Source: a virus (lineage: Duplodnaviria > Caudoviricetes). Taken from it: a stretch of 64,000 nucleotides of DNA. A program made the translations under genes and the position numbers. The DNA lies in the IMG/VR virus record IMGVR_UViG_3300031669_005479, positions 1-64,000 of that record. The stretch is one strand, 5' to 3'. The notes beneath the pieces were generated by a model. The model saw nothing but the letters and a program-made list of their open reading frames with translations, was not told the DNA's origin and made no database searches. Positions 1 through 7,385 of this stretch are shown one piece after another (position 1 is the first letter of the stretch; each line of letters opens with the position of its first letter).

Positions 1-35
1 TTATTTTAAGTTTGTATAATAATTTTTTAACTAAA

Positions 36-132
36 CCATAACAAGGTGTATAAAACATAACCTATTATAGTTCAGTGGTTAATATCAAAGTTCGTGGTTA
101 GATTACGTTTCATACACCCAACCGTTATCGGC
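36..132. repeat. attC-like site 1
   Basis: ccatAAC-aa-GGTGTATaaaacat...acgtttcATACACC-caacc-GTTatcggc. Confidence 0.75.
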
Positions 133-136
133 AACC

Positions 137-445
137 TTAAAGAGCAGCGTCCAACCATTGCCAATCTTCATTAGTTCCATACTCCCAATCTCTTGAAATT
201 ACTTTCGGTTTATAGTTTAAGTCCAAAAGACACATCAAAAGATTAAGCACAAACCCTTCTGCATACTTTACACTTACACCAAAAGAGCCACTTACTCGTA
301 TGTAGTGCTTTTTAAAATCAATATCACAAGGCGGCATTCCTGCAAGTCCTTGTTGGTTAAATTTAGACAGATTAACCATTGCTGTATCAAAGTCATTTTG
401 ACTTATTTCTTTTTCTTTGCTAATTAGATAAAATGAATACCCCAT
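137..445 (-). CDS. Hypothetical cassette protein (102 aa)
   Basis: ORF fills the unit between sites 1 and 2. Confidence 0.7.
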   Translation of the reverse strand: MGYSFYLISKEKEISQNDFDTAMVNLSKFNQQGLAGMPPCDIDFKKHYIRVSGSFGVSVKYAEGFVLNLLMCLLDLNYKPKVISRDWEYGTNEDWQWLDAAL

Positions 446-486
446 TGTTTTGATATTTAAAGTTTAAATTCGTTTTAATAAAGCCA

Positions 487-620
487 GCCGTTAACACGCT
501 ATATGCTTCATTGGCGTGTTCGTTTGTATTCGTAGTTTCTGTCATTTTATAAAGTGTTTAGTAATTTTATAAATTCGTTCTATTAATCGCCAACGAAAGC
601 ATATAGCCATCGTTAGCACC
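487..620. repeat. attC-like site 2
   Basis: gccgttAAC-ac-GCTATATGCTTcattggcg...cgccaacgaAAGCATATAGC-catc-GTTagcacc. Confidence 0.8.
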
Positions 621-837
621 TATAATCACGCTCCATGTAGCTGTTACATGTAAATGATTGAATGTTCACTATATAGTTTCTACCTAAATCGCAAATATGC
701 TGTTCATGTCGATATTTAGCATATTGGTTTTGTCTCAAATTATTACAAGTATTACAATTACGGGCGCTAACAACAGGTTTAACCAATAAAGGCTTCCTGC
801 GTATGCGGTCGGTAATGCGTTTAATAAAGTTCTTCAT
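613..837 (-). CDS. Hypothetical cassette protein, Cys-containing; starts in the loop of site 3
   Basis: Stop TAA lies in the site 2 core; N-terminus is read through the site 3 arm (KPVVSAR). Confidence 0.6.
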   Translation of the reverse strand: MKNFIKRITDRIRRKPLLVKPVVSARNCNTCNNLRQNQYAKYRHEQHICDLGRNYIVNIQSFTCNSYMERDYRC

Positions 838-895
838 ATCTTGATAATTTAGTTATTTTAATCCTTTACTGGTCAAACCTGCGACCGTTATAAAC
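763..895. repeat. attC-like site 3
   Basis: ggcgctAAC-aa-caggtttaaccaataaagg...cctttactggtcaaacctg-cgacc-GTTataaac; arms 17/19 complementary. Confidence 0.8.
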
Positions 896-1148
896 AATTA
901 AATACTACTTGGTCTTTCTCGTAGTTATTAAATTGTAATTTAGGCACTTCACCACAGAATACTATATCAACTTCACCGTTAATAGTATCTATTAGCAAAT
1001 GGTTTTCCTTTTGCTTAAAACCTAAATAAGTTCCTTTATCTTTAAAGTTTACAATCATGGTATTTCGTTTGGTTTTCCATTTTTCGTAAAAACCACCAAT
1101 AAATAAATGTTCTTCTCCTTTTTTGATTTTACATCTCATTTTATCCAT
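888..1148 (-). CDS. Hypothetical cassette protein (86 aa)
   Basis: Stop TAA lies in the site 3 core. Confidence 0.7.
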   Translation of the reverse strand: MDKMRCKIKKGEEHLFIGGFYEKWKTKRNTMIVNFKDKGTYLGFKQKENHLLIDTINGEVDIVFCGEVPKLQFNNYEKDQVVFNCL

Positions 1149-1156
1149 ATTTAAAA

Positions 1157-1220
1157 GTTTATAACAATGTGTAAATAATCATTTCGTTCCTCAACGCTTT
1201 TTACACAAAACGTTATAAAT
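1157..1220. repeat. attC-like site 4 (short)
   Basis: gtttatAAC-aa-TGTGTAAA...TTTACACA-aaac-GTTataaat. Confidence 0.75.
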
Positions 1221-1226
1221 AATAAA

Positions 1227-1427
1227 TTAAATTTTATTGTCTTTAAATATTAACTTTCCTGTTTCATTGTCCATCCAAACTATTCCTTGTACTTTGTTTC
1301 TAAATTCTTCCAAAGTTAATTCTTTTGGTTCTGATGTTCCTTCTACCTTTATTGTAGAGTAATAGTTTGGATTAATTGGGTTATCAACATATTTATTTTT
1401 CAACTCTTTACTTGCTTTCTTTTTCAT
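1227..1427 (-). CDS. Hypothetical cassette protein (66 aa)
   Basis: ORF fills the unit between sites 4 and 5. Confidence 0.6.
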   Translation of the reverse strand: MKKKASKELKNKYVDNPINPNYYSTIKVEGTSEPKELTLEEFRNKVQGIVWMDNETGKLIFKDNKI

Positions 1428-1449
1428 AGGTATAAAATTTAATTTACAT

Positions 1450-1574
1450 ATTTATAACAACAAATATAAAACATTGCTGTCGTGGTTTCTATTTACTTAT
1501 ACGTAATTATTTTAATTTTGTTACATTTATTTACATTCGTGTTGCAACGTTTTATATTTGCGACCGTTAGCAAC
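1450..1574. repeat. attC-like site 5
   Basis: atttatAAC-aa-caaatataaaacattgc...gcaacgttttatatttg-cgacc-GTTagcaac. Confidence 0.8.
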
Positions 1575-1579
1575 AACCG

Positions 1580-1846
1580 CTAAAACTCCGCTGGTCTATC
1601 AAAAGACATCATCGGTGGATTGTCGCTTATCATTTCAATGTAATCTTCGTAAAGGATTGCATCTTCTCTCCTTCCACATACGCTTTCTCCGTGTTTATTT
1701 ACATACTCATTGGGGTCATTACATTTGCCATCTTTATAGTGCTGACATTTCACTATTTCACAACCACTCAAAGCGGCAGTTGCTAACACACGGTCATCAG
1801 CAATATTTGCCGTGCCGTTTGGATAATTTTCTGCTAATTTTGTCAT
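1580..1846 (-). CDS. Hypothetical cassette protein, Cys-containing; starts in the loop of site 6
   Basis: ANIADDRVLAT is encoded by the site 6 arm and core. Confidence 0.6.
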   Translation of the reverse strand: MTKLAENYPNGTANIADDRVLATAALSGCEIVKCQHYKDGKCNDPNEYVNKHGESVCGRREDAILYEDYIEMISDNPPMMSFDRPAEF

Positions 1847-1907
1847 TTGTTCTTTGTTTTAAGTTTTGTGAAGCAAATACTGCTGATACCGTCAAACGTT
1901 ATGCGTT
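1779..1907. repeat. attC-like site 6
   Basis: gttgctAAC-ac-acggt(c)atcagcaatatttgc...gcaaatactgctgataccgt-caaac-GTTatgcgtt; one unpaired base in the left arm. Confidence 0.8.
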
Positions 1908-2240
1908 ATTGTAACGTGCAATAAACAGCTTATAGGTTTCATTAAAAATTCCTTGTGTTTCATCCATTTCAATTGCTAATCTATCAGATAAGTCTGTGTC
2001 TATTTCGCAAACCTTAAAGAAGTCTAAAGCACAACATTCACGCTCGACACTTCTATCAAATCCTGATATAACTTCTTCTTCATCGTCTGTGTCTAAATAT
2101 TCAGAACAATTTGCTTCGTAAGTGTAAACAGCACCGTAATCACTATCTCCAACTTCTTCGTGTCGGTAAAATGAACAATTAGAACAACAACGCATAACAG
2201 CATTTTGTGGCAATTGCGGGTTTTTGGTTTGTTTTTCCAT
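1899..2240 (-). CDS. Hypothetical acidic Cys-rich cassette protein; probable start MEKQ in the loop of site 7
   Basis: Track ORF 1899..2300; ATG at 2240; PQLPQNAVMRC is encoded by the site 7 arm; stop lies in the site 6 core. Confidence 0.65.
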   Translation of the reverse strand: MEKQTKNPQLPQNAVMRCCSNCSFYRHEEVGDSDYGAVYTYEANCSEYLDTDDEEEVISGFDRSVERECCALDFFKVCEIDTDLSDRLAIEMDETQGIFNETYKLFIARYNNA

Positions 2241-2336
2241 TTTAGTTTTTAAATTAAAGTTTAGTCTATTTTTGTATGGTCTGTAATTATTTATCCGCAA
2301 CTGACCACAAGATGCGAAACGTTAGCGAGAATATTT
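2189..2336. repeat. attC-like site 7
   Basis: aacgcatAAC-a-gcattttgtggcaattgcgg...ccgcaactg(a)ccacaagatgc-gaaac-GTTagcgag. Confidence 0.8.
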
Positions 2337-2549
2337 CGCCAACACTTTCCAATCAACTTCTTTTCCTGTTGTTATCTTTATTAATTCAGCAACATCACCA
2401 AGCAACATATATGGCATGTTCAAATGTTTATCGCAATAAGTTTCTTGAACATGTTTTATTGCTTTATCAAAAATATTCTCGTTAACATCAGATATAATTA
2501 ATTTTTTATTCGTGTTGTCAAGTTCAGTAATATTAATTTCTATTTTCAT
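2322..2549 (-). CDS. Hypothetical cassette protein; starts in the loop of site 8
   Basis: LIISDVNEN is encoded by the arm and core; stop lies in the site 7 core. Confidence 0.65.
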   Translation of the reverse strand: MKIEINITELDNTNKKLIISDVNENIFDKAIKHVQETYCDKHLNMPYMLLGDVAELIKITTGKEVDWKVLAKYSR

Positions 2550-2604
2550 TTTATTTAAATTTTAGTGTTATTAATTAAGTAAAAAACTAATCATATCTGC
2601 GACC
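2471..2604. repeat. attC-like site 8, degenerate (right GTT core missing)
   Basis: ctcgttAAC-at-cagatataattaatttttt (2489-2507) pairs 17/19 with 2581-2599, then cgacc followed by CCAG instead of GTT. Confidence 0.65.
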
Positions 2605-2708
2605 CCAGCAAAAGCTGGATAACTCCCATTCCCATTTCCTGTTACTAAAACAGCATTTGTGGCACATTTTACAACATCCCCCCTTCTAAATGATTTTTTA
2701 TTTTTCAT
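2571..2708 (-). CDS. 45-aa ORF, possibly truncated by fusion to site 8
   Basis: Own translation: MKNKKSFRRGDVVKCATNAVLVTGNGNGSYPAFAGVADMISFLLN. Confidence 0.45.
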   Translation of the reverse strand: MKNKKSFRRGDVVKCATNAVLVTGNGNGSYPAFAGVADMISFLLN

Positions 2709-2739
2709 ATAATTTAATTTAATATTTTAAATTCATTAA

Positions 2740-3492
2740 TTATTTGTGAATTTTTTTATATTCAATTCCTTTAGTATAGTATGAAAACCATCTTTGATAC
2801 ATATATGGCAAAATTTTATGATTGGAAAAACCATATAAACCACACGAAAAAAAATCGTGACATTCAATCACAAAAGTAGTTTTGTTAATGCCAACATCAA
2901 GCGTATATGCAACAGGTGCATTTTTATAGTTTTTAATCATACCGTTGATTTTATTAATATCTGGAAATCTAGTAAAATCACCAGAATAATGTTGTAATCC
3001 AACCATTTCATTTTGAAATACAAAAACACGCCATTCACTATCAATAGCAATTAACTCTGAAATCTGATAATTACCCGCAGGTATTTTATAAATATGATTA
3101 TTATCCAATACTATTGCATCTGAAAATCCTTTTATTTTATCATTATTTTTTATGTAAAAACTTCCTTTTATCTTTTCTAAATCAAATTGAGTTCCATTAA
3201 ATATTGACCTACCAGCATATCCATACAATTCTTCTGGAACATTTATTGGCTTAGGTATTTTACCGTAAAATTGAAATAAAAATGCTGATACAAATTGAAC
3301 GCTACCAATCGGTATATAATTTTTATGTATTGGTTTAAATATAAATCTTTCTTGATTTTCATGTGTATTAAAAAACACATATTTCATAATTATATTTCCC
3401 GCATACCAATTATTGTATCTAATTGATTCCAGTAGTGTAAATGTAAAATCATGTCTAACGCTGCCGTCAATTTTTTGTATCAGGAACTTCAT
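2740..3492 (-). CDS. ATP-grasp protein (DUF4343/R2K-like)
   Basis: EWRVFV, YTLDVG, VIECHDFFSCGLYG motifs. Confidence 0.7.
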   Translation of the reverse strand: MKFLIQKIDGSVRHDFTFTLLESIRYNNWYAGNIIMKYVFFNTHENQERFIFKPIHKNYIPIGSVQFVSAFLFQFYGKIPKPINVPEELYGYAGRSIFNGTQFDLEKIKGSFYIKNNDKIKGFSDAIVLDNNHIYKIPAGNYQISELIAIDSEWRVFVFQNEMVGLQHYSGDFTRFPDINKINGMIKNYKNAPVAYTLDVGINKTTFVIECHDFFSCGLYGFSNHKILPYMYQRWFSYYTKGIEYKKIHK

Positions 3493-3532
3493 TGCAAAAA
3501 TATTAATTTACAAATATACAAAACAATTCTAA

Positions 3533-4666
3533 TTATTCACAACCTTTATCAGAATAACTTGAAAATTGTTTACGAATTCCAACCAATTTATTAATTGCCG
3601 TTTTCTTACTTGAAATTAATTTTCCATTATTTGTTACAGATACAAAATCTGGAACTTGATCTAAACATGTAACCACAAGATTTTTATTTGAAAATTGATT
3701 ATGATATAAATCACAATCAAGTGCATATCGCAACATGTTAATATCCAACACAGATTTCTTAAATATTCCTTGTGCACCACCATTAACATTTGCTTCCAAT
3801 GGGTTTTCTTTAATGTAGGAAATATCCATATTTTCATTAATCATTGGACCATTTCCATGACGAGTTTGATATGCACGAGTAATATAGTATGTTTCATTAG
3901 GAACAATATTTAGTTTATTCAACATTTCAATTGCATTTTTTGAAGTTGTGTTGCTCCTAGTTACATGTGGAAAAAAACCATAATCCATATCCAACATAAT
4001 TCCTTGCCCACCTTCAAAAATAAAACTATCGTATGATAATGAACCAAAATCAGTAGCAATCTTAAACCTATTTACCAAATCATCACTTGCAACAATAAAT
4101 TCTTCAATTGCTTTATTCATATGCTCAACAAAATGTTTTGTTGAATGACCGATTTTTGTATTCATGTATTCACGAATCAAATTCAACTTTATATCTCTTA
4201 TGTTAGGATATAGCAAATCACGAACATATAACTTATAATGATCTGCATTACGTTGAATAGTTGCCCCAAAACCAACACCAACGCTACCATGTAACATATT
4301 TGTGCTATCCTGCATGTTACGATATATATCAAAAGGAGTTGTCACCATTGCATTTGGACTATAAATTACTTTTGGTGTGATACCTTGTGCTCTGAGTGCA
4401 TTTCCTTCCTTTAATACTGCAGTTGGATTTACTGTACAATATTCAGACCAATAAGTTGGAACACCTCTTAATGTGCCAGAACCAAAATTTGAAAATGTGT
4501 GTCTGATACTATTGTGAACAACAGTATGTCCAACTTGATGACCACCATTAAATCTAACAACCAATGGATTTTCATGCTTACCACAAAGATAATTAACAAA
4601 AGAACCTTTGCCTTCATCGCCATATCCCGCACCAATAACTAGACTAACATTCATATTATTTATCAT
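3533..4666 (-). CDS. purA: Adenylosuccinate synthetase-like protein (divergent PurA family)
   Basis: GAGYGDEGKG P-loop, RFNGGHQVGHT, FEGGQG, VTRSNT, TRHGNGP. Confidence 0.85.
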   Translation of the reverse strand: MINNMNVSLVIGAGYGDEGKGSFVNYLCGKHENPLVVRFNGGHQVGHTVVHNSIRHTFSNFGSGTLRGVPTYWSEYCTVNPTAVLKEGNALRAQGITPKVIYSPNAMVTTPFDIYRNMQDSTNMLHGSVGVGFGATIQRNADHYKLYVRDLLYPNIRDIKLNLIREYMNTKIGHSTKHFVEHMNKAIEEFIVASDDLVNRFKIATDFGSLSYDSFIFEGGQGIMLDMDYGFFPHVTRSNTTSKNAIEMLNKLNIVPNETYYITRAYQTRHGNGPMINENMDISYIKENPLEANVNGGAQGIFKKSVLDINMLRYALDCDLYHNQFSNKNLVVTCLDQVPDFVSVTNNGKLISSKKTAINKLVGIRKQFSSYSDKGCE

Positions 4667-4676
4667 TTTTTAATAT

Positions 4677-4703
4677 TATACGAACAATATTTTTTTTTGT
4701 TAC
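4677..4703 (-). promoter_or_regulatory. ECF-type promoter GTAAC-N16-CGTATA (purA-like)
   Basis: One of 5 copies, each upstream of a gene start. Confidence 0.6.
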
Positions 4704-4706
4704 AAA

Positions 4707-4736
4707 AAAAGGGGACATAATATTATGTCCCCTTTT
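4707..4736 (-). terminator. Palindromic terminator after the vWA gene
   Basis: Perfect 30-bp palindrome aaaaggggacataatattatgtcccctttt. Confidence 0.7.
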
Positions 4737-4752
4737 AAGTAAATGTAATTAA

Positions 4753-5664
4753 TTAAAGATTGATTACACCGTCATCATTCGTTGCAACGATGCTAGTATT
4801 TACTTTTGCAAGTGCAGTTGTAACTTCACCAGCAGTTTTTGCATCAAATTTACTTACAACTGTTGACATGTCAGCACCATGTTGAACTGCAATTAGTGTA
4901 GCAATTGTCGCACAAATAGCACGATAATCATTTAGAACAATAAGTCTTTCACCTAGCATTCTTTTCCAATAACCCAAAACGTCTGGATCATCACGATAAC
5001 TGGTTTCATTAATATGTATATGATATACATTATATAATCGTTGTGCCTCTTCAAGAAGTTGTACATCAGATACACTTTCTGACTGACTATAACCAAAAAG
5101 GTCTTTCAATGCCGATGCACTTAATTCATTCCAATTCTTTTCATCACCAATAGTAAAAAGAAATCCCTTTTCATTACGTTTTTCAAAACAATCAATAGAT
5201 GTATGACGACCAGCAGTAAGCCAAGCAAGTAAATAACTTTCCATATTTTGGCCACCACCACCGCCTTCAATAAATAATCCTGTTAACCATTTATCAAGGT
5301 CTTCAGTACCAGATTCAAATTGACCTAATTGAAGCGGAACCCTATCTATATGATGATCACCAATACCGCCAAAAAGAATTTGGGGATGTTCAACACCATT
5401 GTCAATAATGGTATTCATTAGTGTACCGAGTTCATTTTTCACAATGTTCTCTGGAATTCTACCCATACTACCAGTAACATCAAGAAAAACCATTACAGCC
5501 AATGAATCTGGATGTGCATCACTATCACGTGATTCTCTAATTGTGATGTTTTGGGGTAACATATCACTACTAGCATCCTTAGCAAAAATTTCATCAGCAT
5601 CCTTATGCACATAACTTGCACTTAAGTTAGTATATGCATCCTTTGTCCAACTGCTATATCCCAT
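4753..5664 (-). CDS. von Willebrand factor A domain protein
   Basis: MIDAS-like DVTGSMG, GIGD, GGGG..ESY, FTIGDE. Confidence 0.8.
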   Translation of the reverse strand: MGYSSWTKDAYTNLSASYVHKDADEIFAKDASSDMLPQNITIRESRDSDAHPDSLAVMVFLDVTGSMGRIPENIVKNELGTLMNTIIDNGVEHPQILFGGIGDHHIDRVPLQLGQFESGTEDLDKWLTGLFIEGGGGGQNMESYLLAWLTAGRHTSIDCFEKRNEKGFLFTIGDEKNWNELSASALKDLFGYSQSESVSDVQLLEEAQRLYNVYHIHINETSYRDDPDVLGYWKRMLGERLIVLNDYRAICATIATLIAVQHGADMSTVVSKFDAKTAGEVTTALAKVNTSIVATNDDGVINL

Positions 5665-5666
5665 AA

Positions 5667-5849
5667 CTATTCAGTTTTAGCAGTTTCAGTAGTTTTGTCA
5701 GAAACACCAATGATGTCTTCATCAACTACAACATTAGACATATCGCCTGATTCAGTTACTTCAGGTTCTGTAGTTTCAGCACCGTTTCGTGCTTCTTCTT
5801 TTGCCATGTCCTCGAAAGACTGGACTCTTGAAAATTGATCTAATCCCAT
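5667..5849 (-). CDS. Small acidic hypothetical protein
   Basis: ORF tightly packed within the operon. Confidence 0.55.
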   Translation of the reverse strand: MGLDQFSRVQSFEDMAKEEARNGAETTEPEVTESGDMSNVVVDEDIIGVSDKTTETAKTE

Positions 5850-5896
5850 AATTTAAAAATTTAATTGTTAGTATTAAAAAAACTGTTTAAAATTAG

Positions 5897-6784
5897 TTAC
5901 AAATCTAGTGAATAAAATTTACTTTCAAAATTTTTCTTCAATAAATCTCGATATTGAAGATATTCATCTTTATCATTTTTATGTTTAGTTAATAGAAAGT
6001 TTAAAATATTCTGATTAACATTAGCATCGCTTTTTAATTTAGTTCCAGCACTTGACTTATCACCTAGCAAATATAGTGCAATTTTTTTACAAAGTTCCAA
6101 ATCAATATCTGGGGTAGCAATTTTATTTACAAATAAATTGGTTGGATACCACATTTTATACTTAGCACTAATCGTTTCGGCTCTACTATTTACATTATGC
6201 ATATGGTAATAATTAATAATAATAATACCATGTGTTTCTGGCACAACAAAGACTGTTGTAGGATTTAAACCCAAGTGTGCATAGTTTATTTGCCTTAACC
6301 ATAAAACATATTCAAACATTCTGCTAAATATCCAATTAACATGAACTTGAGACAATTTCTGACCTGTTAATGGAATGCTGCGATCCTTTAAATAAATTGT
6401 TAATTTATTTTTTTCCAATTTCATGCTTTCTGGCATATAACGATGAAATGCCTCTGACGCTTTGTCATGTTTCGATTTAAGAATATTGTAATTATTAACA
6501 GATTTGGTAATTATTTTACGATTAGCATCCGTAACAACATACTCAATTCTTTTTTCAAATACTCTGAATTCACCTGCTTCATCAACATACAAAACACCCT
6601 TTTCAAGTATTTCTTTATATTGATTAATTTTCGTCATTGCTTCTGCAGCCAATGAATTTGAATGATAATCTGGATGTAATAGTTTACTGTAATTAAGATA
6701 ACTCCTTTTCCAATCATCACCACTAAAAATATCTGATGGTTTTGTTGATTTTAATACCATCTGAATTAGTTCAATATCTGTCAT
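5897..6784 (-). CDS. J-domain (HPD) fused to a degenerate kinase-like domain
   Basis: YSKLLHPDY near the N-terminus; YAHLGLNPTTVFV resembles a kinase catalytic loop. Confidence 0.6.
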   Translation of the reverse strand: MTDIELIQMVLKSTKPSDIFSGDDWKRSYLNYSKLLHPDYHSNSLAAEAMTKINQYKEILEKGVLYVDEAGEFRVFEKRIEYVVTDANRKIITKSVNNYNILKSKHDKASEAFHRYMPESMKLEKNKLTIYLKDRSIPLTGQKLSQVHVNWIFSRMFEYVLWLRQINYAHLGLNPTTVFVVPETHGIIIINYYHMHNVNSRAETISAKYKMWYPTNLFVNKIATPDIDLELCKKIALYLLGDKSSAGTKLKSDANVNQNILNFLLTKHKNDKDEYLQYRDLLKKNFESKFYSLDL

Positions 6785-6788
6785 TATT

Positions 6789-7385
6789 CTAAATATTTAG
6801 AAATTTTTCCACCTCATTACAAATTTTTTGTGTTAGTCCAAAATAACTATCAACATGAAAAAAATGTTCACGCTGATTTAATAAAAAATCTATACCATCA
6901 TCAATTATTGCATAATGATAAAAATTATGACTACTAGCATCAAAATATTCCTCAACATTATTTGTAAGCCATTTTTTTATTTCACATCCCCTATTACGAC
7001 ATTCGCAATTACCTGTTTTATCAATAATGGTAAATGTTGCACCAAGTTTCTTAAATATTACTTGTAAATCCTGAACATCCCATTGATTTCTCATTGAAGC
7101 ACTTAAAACTACAACGGAATTTGTTTTAACACACAAATCATTCAATAATTTAATTTTACTTAAATCGATTTGTGATTTATAATAATCAATAGTACTAATT
7201 TCTTGTGATTTAAGTAATTTACGTAAATATTTTTTCACTACCTTATATAATGGTATGCCATCATTCTTATGTAAATGTTTATATTGCTCTTCATAAAAAA
7301 GATCATGATTTAAAACTCCATCTACGTCACAAAAAATCAAAGACTTAAATTCATTTTTATTTTCCATATTTCTTTTAATTGTCAA
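6789..7385 (-). CDS. HAD-superfamily phosphatase (RNA-repair-like HAD)
   Basis: FCDVDGVLN, VVLSAS, YAIIDD; probable start 7367. Confidence 0.75.
   Translation of the reverse strand: MTIKRNMENKNEFKSLIFCDVDGVLNHDLFYEEQYKHLHKNDGIPLYKVVKKYLRKLLKSQEISTIDYYKSQIDLSKIKLLNDLCVKTNSVVVLSASMRNQWDVQDLQVIFKKLGATFTIIDKTGNCECRNRGCEIKKWLTNNVEEYFDASSHNFYHYAIIDDGIDFLLNQREHFFHVDSYFGLTQKICNEVEKFLNI

Follow-up and report, generated by a model that had tools for sequence, protein, structure and literature searches.

Nucleotides 39–2606 of the window (the whole 64,000-nt stretch analysed here, i.e., positions 1 to 64,000 of virus record IMGVR_UViG_3300031669_005479) are probably an array of mobile gene cassettes that belongs to an integron-like system specific to phages of Flavobacteria-type (Bacteroidota) hosts. 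A first-pass annotation made from the letters of the DNA alone had proposed for this region a cassette platform that resembles an integron and may form a distinct family. The proposal gains support from the presence of identical units in unrelated flanks, from insertions and deletions of units at AAC, and from a recombinase gene that occupies a polar position at the arrays of relatives.

All eight AAC cores listed in the first-pass annotation (40, 493, 769, 1163, 1456, 1785, 2196 and 2484) are present, and each starts an imperfect inverted repeat that is ended by GTT. The eight elements are 54–130 nt long and on the minus strand follow the consensus TAAC-G-N4-stem-loop-stem-N1-2-GTTA. The spacer asymmetry noticed earlier (1–2 versus 4–5 nt) was borne out, and its polarity relative to the genes is constant, with the long spacer (5 nt) invariably located on the gene-upstream side. 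The elements alternate with single co-oriented small open reading frames (ORFs) on the minus strand, also as described before; as a refinement, the ATG of the next ORF lies inside the hairpin loop in five of the eight elements. In five window elements, the preceding ORF is terminated by the TAA of TAAC. One point requires correction: the unit is a hairpin with the ORF downstream of it, and the crossover is at the core that reads AAC on the gene-sense strand. The ORFs are thus inverted in integron terms.

Evidence for mobile units and for a recombinase associated with them in relatives

We collected 149 viral loci (1.26 Mb; individual loci are given L numbers below) that hold 486 elements, nearly all of them with spacer offsets of (5,2) or (5,1). 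Mobility statistics were obtained by all-against-all BLAST of the collected loci. Of the high-scoring segment pairs (HSPs) of at least 150 bp, 284 have their start point at the T of TAAC and 501 no more than 3 nt away from it, the match continuing downstream through the hairpin into the gene; only about 12 HSP starts fall within the first 10 nt of the element. Near-identical hairpin cores stand amid unrelated flanks in 1,056 of 1,157 related-core pairs, and where such a pair is linked to one flank only, this is the downstream flank in 61 cases and the upstream flank in none. Fourteen HSPs span exactly the distance from one TAAC to the next at 82–100% identity, and the flanks were unrelated in the five examples inspected. 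Whole hairpin-plus-ORF units that are 92–100% identical were likewise found in unrelated flanks; a 315-bp unit, for example, is 100% identical between L040 and L125, whose flanks are unrelated. BLAST comparison of two elements of the window itself (W5 and W7 in Table 1) with phage relatives revealed homology that ends exactly at TAAC and GTTAT, the flanking genes being unrelated.

The comparison of gain and loss in related phages, which the first-pass annotation had called for, was made with two pairs of contigs that are 99.8–100% identical (L007 with L020 and L077 with L136) and contain insertions or deletions (indels) of hairpin-plus-ORF units. Contig L020 has two units more than L007, flanked by GCTAAC, while L007 has one extra unit relative to L020, flanked by AACGGT; L077 has one unit more than L136, flanked by CTAACGT. 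The common denominator of these flanks is AAC. Altogether, seven indel junctions of near-identical relatives of the array, as distinct from the window, all map within or beside AAC, at a resolution set by the 3–7 nt shared at each junction. Whole units thus differ between related phages, and all resolved junctions are at AAC cores.

When the ORFs around the arrays were clustered, a tyrosine recombinase of 265–270 aa with a PF00589 domain and an N-terminal SAM-like domain (for example, L035:2239–3039) ranked second among the families by spread, with 17 loci. In almost all of the 17 loci, its gene is co-oriented with the array and located directly downstream of the last unit. The array end in front of it consists of the last private box (a segment that pairs across the preceding ORF, see below) and TAAC, followed by a conserved TAtnATATAT sequence ~45–75 nt before the ATG. 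When loci were fetched by the recombinase gene, hairpins were found upstream and co-oriented in 12 of 14 and downstream in none, and every one of the 13 loci that include the gene start has the TAAC-TAtnATATAT box. A PF00589 gene is present in four of five near-complete element-bearing jumbo phages, and the three with an intact gene (281–362 kb) have the same layout. The closest structure to the recombinase is archaeal XerA (PDB 4a8e). The alignment with VchIntIA (PDB 2a3v) falls into two pieces, with 37 residues where IntI has 85, and the IntI-specific insertion is missing; scores with NCBIfam integron-integrase models are below the curated cut-offs (155 bits for TIGR02249, against a cut-off of 265). 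In metagenomes, this recombinase forms well over a hundred clusters at 90% identity, which carry only the name ‘XerD’. The search for a recombinase advised in the first-pass annotation therefore had a divided outcome: a XerD-like enzyme is encoded at the array end in relatives, and none is encoded in the contig under study, which is linear, ~66% complete, and in which the array runs off the end, stopping 38 nt short of it on the side where a platform site is expected.

The ‘integrases’ of Polaribacter phages Freya and Leef and Cellulophaga phage Ingeline are homologous to the recombinase (38–41% identity). In the original Freya paper, the integrase was taken as a sign of possible lysogeny and cassettes were not mentioned. 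Ten Freya isolates from one host (Freya_1 to Freya_10; MT732463–MT732472) have genomes of 44.0–48.9 kb. Freya_1, _5, _8 and _10 are 99.2–100% identical in aligned stretches on either side of a variable block. This block, which adjoins the integrase gene on its upstream side and comprises as many as 12 small co-oriented genes, is all that sets them apart. The isolates examined (Freya_1, _2, _5, _8 and _10, the sequence of Freya_2 being covered in part) represent at least five states of the array. At each of the three resolved junctions, the break lies immediately 3′ of a YAAC core, which in Freya_1 and Freya_5 is fused to a sequence ~55 nt before the integrase ATG. The variable block of Freya abuts a site equivalent to the putative platform. 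The strict TAAC...GTTA scan (see below) returned nothing in the Freya arrays since the first core reads CAAC there, and the elements were identified by eye.

Since all Freya variants can be read as nested deletions of the Freya_10 array, one could imagine that units are lost and never gained, through slippage of replication from one short direct TAAC(G) repeat to another where folded hairpins juxtapose them, with no dedicated site-specific machinery. The junction repeats of 4–7 nt are of a suitable kind, and a hairpin together with its private stem would put successive TAAC cores side by side. However, slippage cannot place the fully identical 315-bp unit into the unrelated flanks of another contig, and it leaves the conserved site and the recombinase at array ends unexplained; we consider it very improbable. 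We give as little credence to the idea that the elements are non-autonomous transposable elements, similar to miniature inverted-repeat transposable elements or to palindrome-associated elements of the IS200/IS605 type, that insert at TA/TAAC between genes with the transposase encoded elsewhere. The sharp TAAC/GTTA boundaries and the dispersal of near-identical cores amid unrelated flanks would be expected of such elements, and the strand-specific fold described below recalls single-strand transposition by Y1 (HUH) enzymes. Yet what is gained or lost is a hairpin with its ORF and not the hairpin alone, the private complementarity spans the ORF rather than the hairpin, and the enzyme with the polar association is a tyrosine recombinase; no Y1 transposase was found in this contig, and no transposase was found in a scan of the ten most widespread neighbouring protein families.

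Pairing across the genes, the strand that folds and a proposed mechanism

The 12 nt after each GTTA are complementary to the 12 nt before the next TAAC, so that the pairing spans the intervening ORF. When Watson–Crick and G·T pairs are counted, adjacent segments of the window array pair at 10.0 of 12 positions on average, compared to 5.5 for all other combinations; the seven private stems (span 128–2482) are listed in Table 1. The family-wide comparison (325 adjacent pairs from other phages) gave 7.7 matches of 12, versus 3.99 for own flanks and 4.07 for random pairs, and at least nine matches were obtained with 52% of adjacent pairs and 1% of controls. The second array of the contig, which is introduced below, has private stems of 13–15 nt with a single mismatch. 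With GTTA/TAAC included, the private stem comprises ~15 bp, in which Watson–Crick pairs vary freely except at position 11, which is G·T in 82% of cases.

Mismatches in these stems are strongly asymmetric. Read on the gene-sense strand, private stems contain 189 mismatches of the G·T type and three of the A·C type; for hairpin stems of 508 distinct elements, the numbers are 879 and 153, and G·T accumulates at stem positions 8 and 13. The sense-strand fold is more stable than the antisense fold in 12 of 15 elements. The bias indicates that selection acts on the gene-sense strand as a single strand.

A single strand under selection could equally be RNA. According to this alternative, the hairpins are RNA-level signals in polycistronic early transcripts (RNase III-type processing, mRNA stabilisation or translational control), the 5′ untranslated region (UTR) of each gene pairs with its own 3′ end, modules are shuffled by homologous recombination, as proposed for the PeSL elements of T4-type phages (considered in the last section), and the neighbouring recombinase is an ordinary integrase. 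Both the G·T bias and the greater stability of the fold are on the strand that is transcribed as sense, and the 5′ UTR and start codon, at times with a conserved N-terminal leader, lie in loops and right flanks. Several complete element-bearing phages have no recombinase, and PeSL (PMC2839356, PMC4122927) provides a precedent. Nevertheless, homologous exchange should scatter breakpoints over the conserved 90–120 nt, whereas HSP starts gather at the T of TAAC, and the indel junctions have only 4–7 nt in common. Strict polarity and adjacency to a tyrosine recombinase behind a conserved box are also unexpected for a lysogeny integrase. We therefore regard RNA signalling with homologous shuffling as an unlikely full account, though less so than slippage or transposition; regulatory and recombination roles of the hairpins are not mutually exclusive. 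A related suggestion of the first-pass annotation, that the hairpins could prove to be ordinary terminators, was checked as well, and the T-run of intrinsic terminators is not present after them.

Several observations weigh against the interpretation of the array as recombinase-driven cassettes. Some homology breaks occur on the GTTA side (the replacement in L059/L115, and the B2-B3 block common to L127), and some hairpin-plus-UTR modules are joined to different ORF bodies after a common N-terminal leader of ~22 aa; these two kinds of breaks indicate that homologous recombination between conserved modules also shuffles the regions. Given the junction microhomologies of 4–7 nt and the similar TTGTTnnYAAC context in Freya, replication slippage or microhomology-mediated deletion is conceivable too. 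The G·T bias of the sense strand is as compatible with RNA structure as with single-stranded DNA. Profiles of tyrosine (PF00589), Y1 (PF01797) and serine (PF00239) recombinases found no match in this contig. A PF00589 gene is also absent from the complete cultured element-bearing phages mumin6-1, filifjonk9-1 and P12002L and from a complete 362-kb jumbo phage, and hence either the enzyme acts in trans or another mechanism operates in them. No circular intermediate was seen in the read data, which consist of Logan contigs, where circles are not assessable. Finally, the published phage site most alike, P12002L_attC1, is the only one of six sites for which no IntI1 junction was verified (PMC9892861).

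With the cassette interpretation, recombination could proceed as follows. A unit extends from one TAAC core to the next. It comprises the hairpin, in which the 5′ UTR and in many cases the initial codons lie, followed by the remainder of the ORF and a 3′ segment of ~11 nt, which together with TAAC pairs with GTTA and the ~11 nt just past the hairpin. If the unit were excised as a circle, both segments would lengthen the hairpin into one long imperfect stem, made of a 15-bp outer box with a fixed G·T, an asymmetric spacer of 5 × 1–2 nt and a ~20-bp inner stem with fixed G·T pairs. The substrate would be the folded gene-sense strand of single-stranded DNA. The recombinase would cut and rejoin at the AAC core, perhaps at AA|C as in integrons, the data resolving the crossover to within AAC, and new units may come in at the recombinase-proximal site. 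The recombinase serving the arrays of this contig may be encoded in the missing third of the genome or supplied in trans. The cargo would presumably serve host-range or anti-defence functions, DNA methyltransferases being the commonest identifiable cargo in relatives.

We also lean, with somewhat less assurance than for the array itself, towards a broader proposal. According to it, a dedicated integron analogue is common to the phages of Flavobacteriia and related Bacteroidota, which range in size from siphoviruses of 38 kb to jumbo phages above 300 kb. It would consist of a Xer-like recombinase of 266 aa, a TAAC-TATATAT platform site and cassettes of hairpin plus gene that recombine as folded DNA of the sense strand. 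The system would be a main trade route for methyltransferases and other small host-interaction genes, and the ‘lysogeny integrases’ of the Freya type would be cassette recombinases. What would be new is integron logic in a separate phage-borne lineage, with a simpler Xer-like enzyme and mirrored cassettes, in hundreds of environmental contigs and in cultured phages. If true, it would show concretely how hyperplastic regions with small orphan genes arise in large aquatic and soil phages, and why isolates of one phage species differ in gene blocks; for annotation, it would mean that an ‘integrase’ alone no longer implies a temperate lifestyle. The hairpin and private stem provide a search handle for those accessory genes on which selection probably acts fastest, candidate counter-defence genes among them. 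The proposal is directly testable in the cultured pair of Polaribacter sp. HaHaR_3_91 and phage Freya.

Arrays of this contig and their distribution among phages

The whole 202,814-bp contig was searched by a strict anchored scan, in which both cores had to be present and an ungapped stem with 13 or more matches out of 16 had to lie within 7 nt of them. Ten elements were retrieved, all in two arrays, while shuffled genomes yielded about one per strand. The sequences TAACG and GTTAT show no genome-wide enrichment in this contig, and the signal is therefore local and structural. An Rfam search of window positions 1–4000 and the second array (E up to 1) matched no family to the hairpins.

The second array (genome 189,444–192,525; L004:3445–6526) is on the plus strand and has seven hairpin-plus-ORF units, with strict elements at 189,444–192,264. 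It ends with a private box, TAAC and a TATATAT-type motif (~192,522) that resembles the putative platform site of relatives, but what comes next is a 77-aa ORF and then tRNA genes, with no recombinase gene. One hairpin family of this array (genome 191,402–192,148, i.e., L004:5403–6149; also L146, L071 and L129) has a conserved 115-nt 5′ UTR and a ~22-aa N-terminal leader, MSEDIRKMIDKVKNFKQFVNE, which is fused to unrelated protein bodies in different phages. Judged by eye, the 5′ and 3′ UTRs of the unit with this leader appear complementary over tens of nucleotides. The leader seems to resemble the capsid-targeting sequences of T4 internal proteins.

Features of the window array and of the genes next to it are listed in Table 1. 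The W1 family was found in more than 118 viral loci among the matches listed for a pattern with 29 specified bases in IMG/VR. Element W5 has a paralogue in the same contig (genome 190,281–190,394). In W8, the gene-upstream core has decayed to GGGG instead of TAAC, and a 45-aa ORF (2571–2708) extends into the 5′ arm; a GGTCGCA motif after the core is common to W8, W5 and W3. There are nine small cassette ORFs (span 137–2708); a Pfam scan of eight of them (all but 420–545) gave no match above the cut-off.

Table 1. Features of the window array and adjacent genes (window coordinates)
Feature	Position	Strand	Remarks
Hairpin element W1	39–127	−	Most widespread family; last before contig end
Hairpin element W2	492–615	−	ATG of 41-aa ORF 420–545 in loop; fold z = −4.0
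Hairpin element W3	768–890	−	Logan contigs of four soil runs match 768–890 exactly, sequence unlike past 890
Hairpin element W4	1162–1215	−	Short form, 54 nt
Hairpin element W5	1455–1569	−	87% identity to copies in LR756500 (uncultured huge phage, 462 kb)
Hairpin element W6	1784–1901	−	ATG of ORF 1580–1846 in loop
Hairpin element W7	2195–2324	−	~77% identity to elements of Flavobacterium siphophages filifjonk9-1 and mumin6-1
Hairpin element W8	2483–2606	−	20-nt arms, 90% complementary
Private stem	2471–2482/2325–2336	−	8–11 of 12 paired (each stem)
Private stem	2183–2194/1902–1913	−	
Private stem	1772–1783/1570–1581	−	
Private stem	1443–1454/1216–1227	−	
Private stem	1150–1161/891–902	−	
Private stem	756–767/616–627	−	
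Private stem	480–491/128–139	−	
Cassette ORF	2571–2708	−	From the ORF list (all nine)
Cassette ORF	2322–2549	−	
Cassette ORF	1899–2300	−	
Cassette ORF	1580–1846	−	
Cassette ORF	1227–1427	−	
Cassette ORF	888–1148	−	
Cassette ORF	613–837	−	
Cassette ORF	420–545	−	
Cassette ORF	137–445	−	
ATP-grasp gene	2740–3492	−	R2K clade; adjoins the next gene
Adenylosuccinate synthetase homologue	3533–4666	−	Nearest phage DNA matches in Rhizobium phages

Every gene in window positions 1–7385 is on the minus strand. The matches of the adenylosuccinate synthetase homologue in Rhizobium phages are annotated as adenylosuccinate or 2-aminooxy-adenylosuccinate synthetase, and judging by these matches the gene possibly encodes a PurZ-type enzyme for modified adenine. 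Logan contigs of run X1, probably the source sample, that cover window positions 1–4000 break at hairpin elements, and depth over the elements is two to four times higher, as expected of repeats common to several co-occurring phages. The few joints seen in Logan contigs have short sides (20–34 nt), and no RNA run was listed for window positions 1–2700.

Two exact-pattern scans of IMG/VR retrieved 29 loci and, among the matches listed, more than 118 loci, respectively. The same pattern was found in just 22 places in 185,579 bacterial and archaeal species genomes, all of them short contigs of metagenome-assembled genomes. The element family is phage-borne and nearly absent from bacterial and archaeal genome records, while viral contigs that show this architecture number more than 150, with about 500 elements between them. 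Elements are often 90–130 nt long and may reach ~270 nt. Among the recognisable proteins near arrays, N6/N4 DNA methyltransferases (18 loci) and C5 methyltransferases (8 loci) are the most frequent, and a phage-encoded SmpB homologue is present near arrays in seven loci; example methyltransferase or SmpB-type loci are L117:670–1440, L048:848–1798 and L115:5183–5659. Comparison of this contig with the complete small phages mumin6-1 and P12002L revealed no common proteins beyond a weak nuclease match.

Comparison with known systems

A literature search found no paper that describes this phage system, which is no proof that none exists, and the known precedent is partial. Among phage systems, the PeSL elements (Arbiol et al. 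2010, PMC2839356; Comeau et al. 2014, PMC4122927), which are promoter–terminator cassettes, share with the arrays described here the small accessory ORFs, the location in hyperplastic regions of large lytic phages, the flanking stem-loop motifs and the modular shuffling. The arrays studied here differ in having breakpoints at a 3–4-nt core, where PeSL would have a promoter with a terminator stem-loop and exchange within the motif, in the private complementarity of each ORF, and in the tyrosine recombinase and putative platform site found in relatives. PeSL exchange has reportedly been ascribed to homology between the motifs and involves no dedicated recombinase. The Bacteroidota -7 motif TAnnTTTG has only three occurrences on the sense strand of the window array, in no case with an upstream TTG.

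Outside phages, repetitive intergenic sequences of the rAID-1 loci of gut Bacteroidales have been called reminiscent of integrons (Ross et al. 2019, bioRxiv 10.1101/471110). These loci also belong to Bacteroidota and have a XerD-family recombinase beside a long co-directional array of small AT-rich accessory genes (10.1101/471110). They are defined by a recombinase at least 44% identical to that of the Bacteroides fragilis rAID and located at the 5′ array end, whereas the phage recombinase is at the 3′ end. In addition, rAID-1 is chromosomal or borne by integrative and conjugative elements and carries immunity genes, and its likeness to the phage arrays is judged here by layout. The use of one phage-DNA strand as a folded substrate is known from the CTX phage of Vibrio cholerae, in which host XerCD integrates the whole folded single-stranded phage genome at chromosomal dif. 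As proposed here, a Xer-type tyrosine recombinase acts on a hairpin of one strand in that case, but there are no gene-cassette arrays.

The first-pass annotation had stated that integron arrays are not an established feature of lytic phages. This is partly outdated, since Qi et al. (2023, PMC9892861) reported clusters of attC sites lacking integron integrases (CALINs) in virulent phages. Their survey of 10,705 phage genomes yielded only 17 CALINs, of which Polaribacter phage P12002L has one, and they reported few classical integrons in temperate phages; P12002L_attC1 has the same build as the elements described here. By structure, the window array is a CALIN too, with eight sites in 2.6 kb (two are enough) and no recombinase in 202.8 kb.

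The likeness to integrons extends to several features. Structure rather than sequence is conserved in both, the elements being imperfect palindromes with unpaired bases in an asymmetric spacer and with TAAC...GTTA cores that resemble R″/R′; classical aadA7 attC also reads ...TCTAACG...TTGTTAGA... In both, the TAA of the core is frequently a stop codon, the boxes that follow one site and precede the next are complementary to each other, the crossover falls in the AAC/GTT core (in relatives of the window array), and methyltransferases are frequent cargo. The AAC strand of integrons is the ‘bottom’ strand, which folds and is cleaved at AA|C, and the layout is cassettes, platform, integrase. Along the AAC-bearing strand of the phage arrays of relatives, the same order of cassettes, putative platform site and recombinase gene in sense is seen, and the fold-competent strand and the crossover core both fit the integron layout.

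The differences are equally clear. The phage ORFs are on the folding (‘bottom’) strand, so that each hairpin precedes its gene, and every gene has its own upstream hairpin and UTR, with no common Pc-type layout. The phage outer box is ~15 bp with a fixed G·T versus 7 bp in integrons, and the spacers are 5 and 1–2 nt versus 5 and ~5–6 nt in aadA7 attC, in line with the difference in geometry pointed out in the first-pass annotation. The recombinase of the phage arrays, at 266 aa, is XerA-like and not an integron integrase, and the system is phage-borne and nearly absent from bacterial genomes. Because of the strand of its ORFs, its outer box, its spacers and its non-IntI enzyme, we do not file the system as an integron, though it probably works like one.

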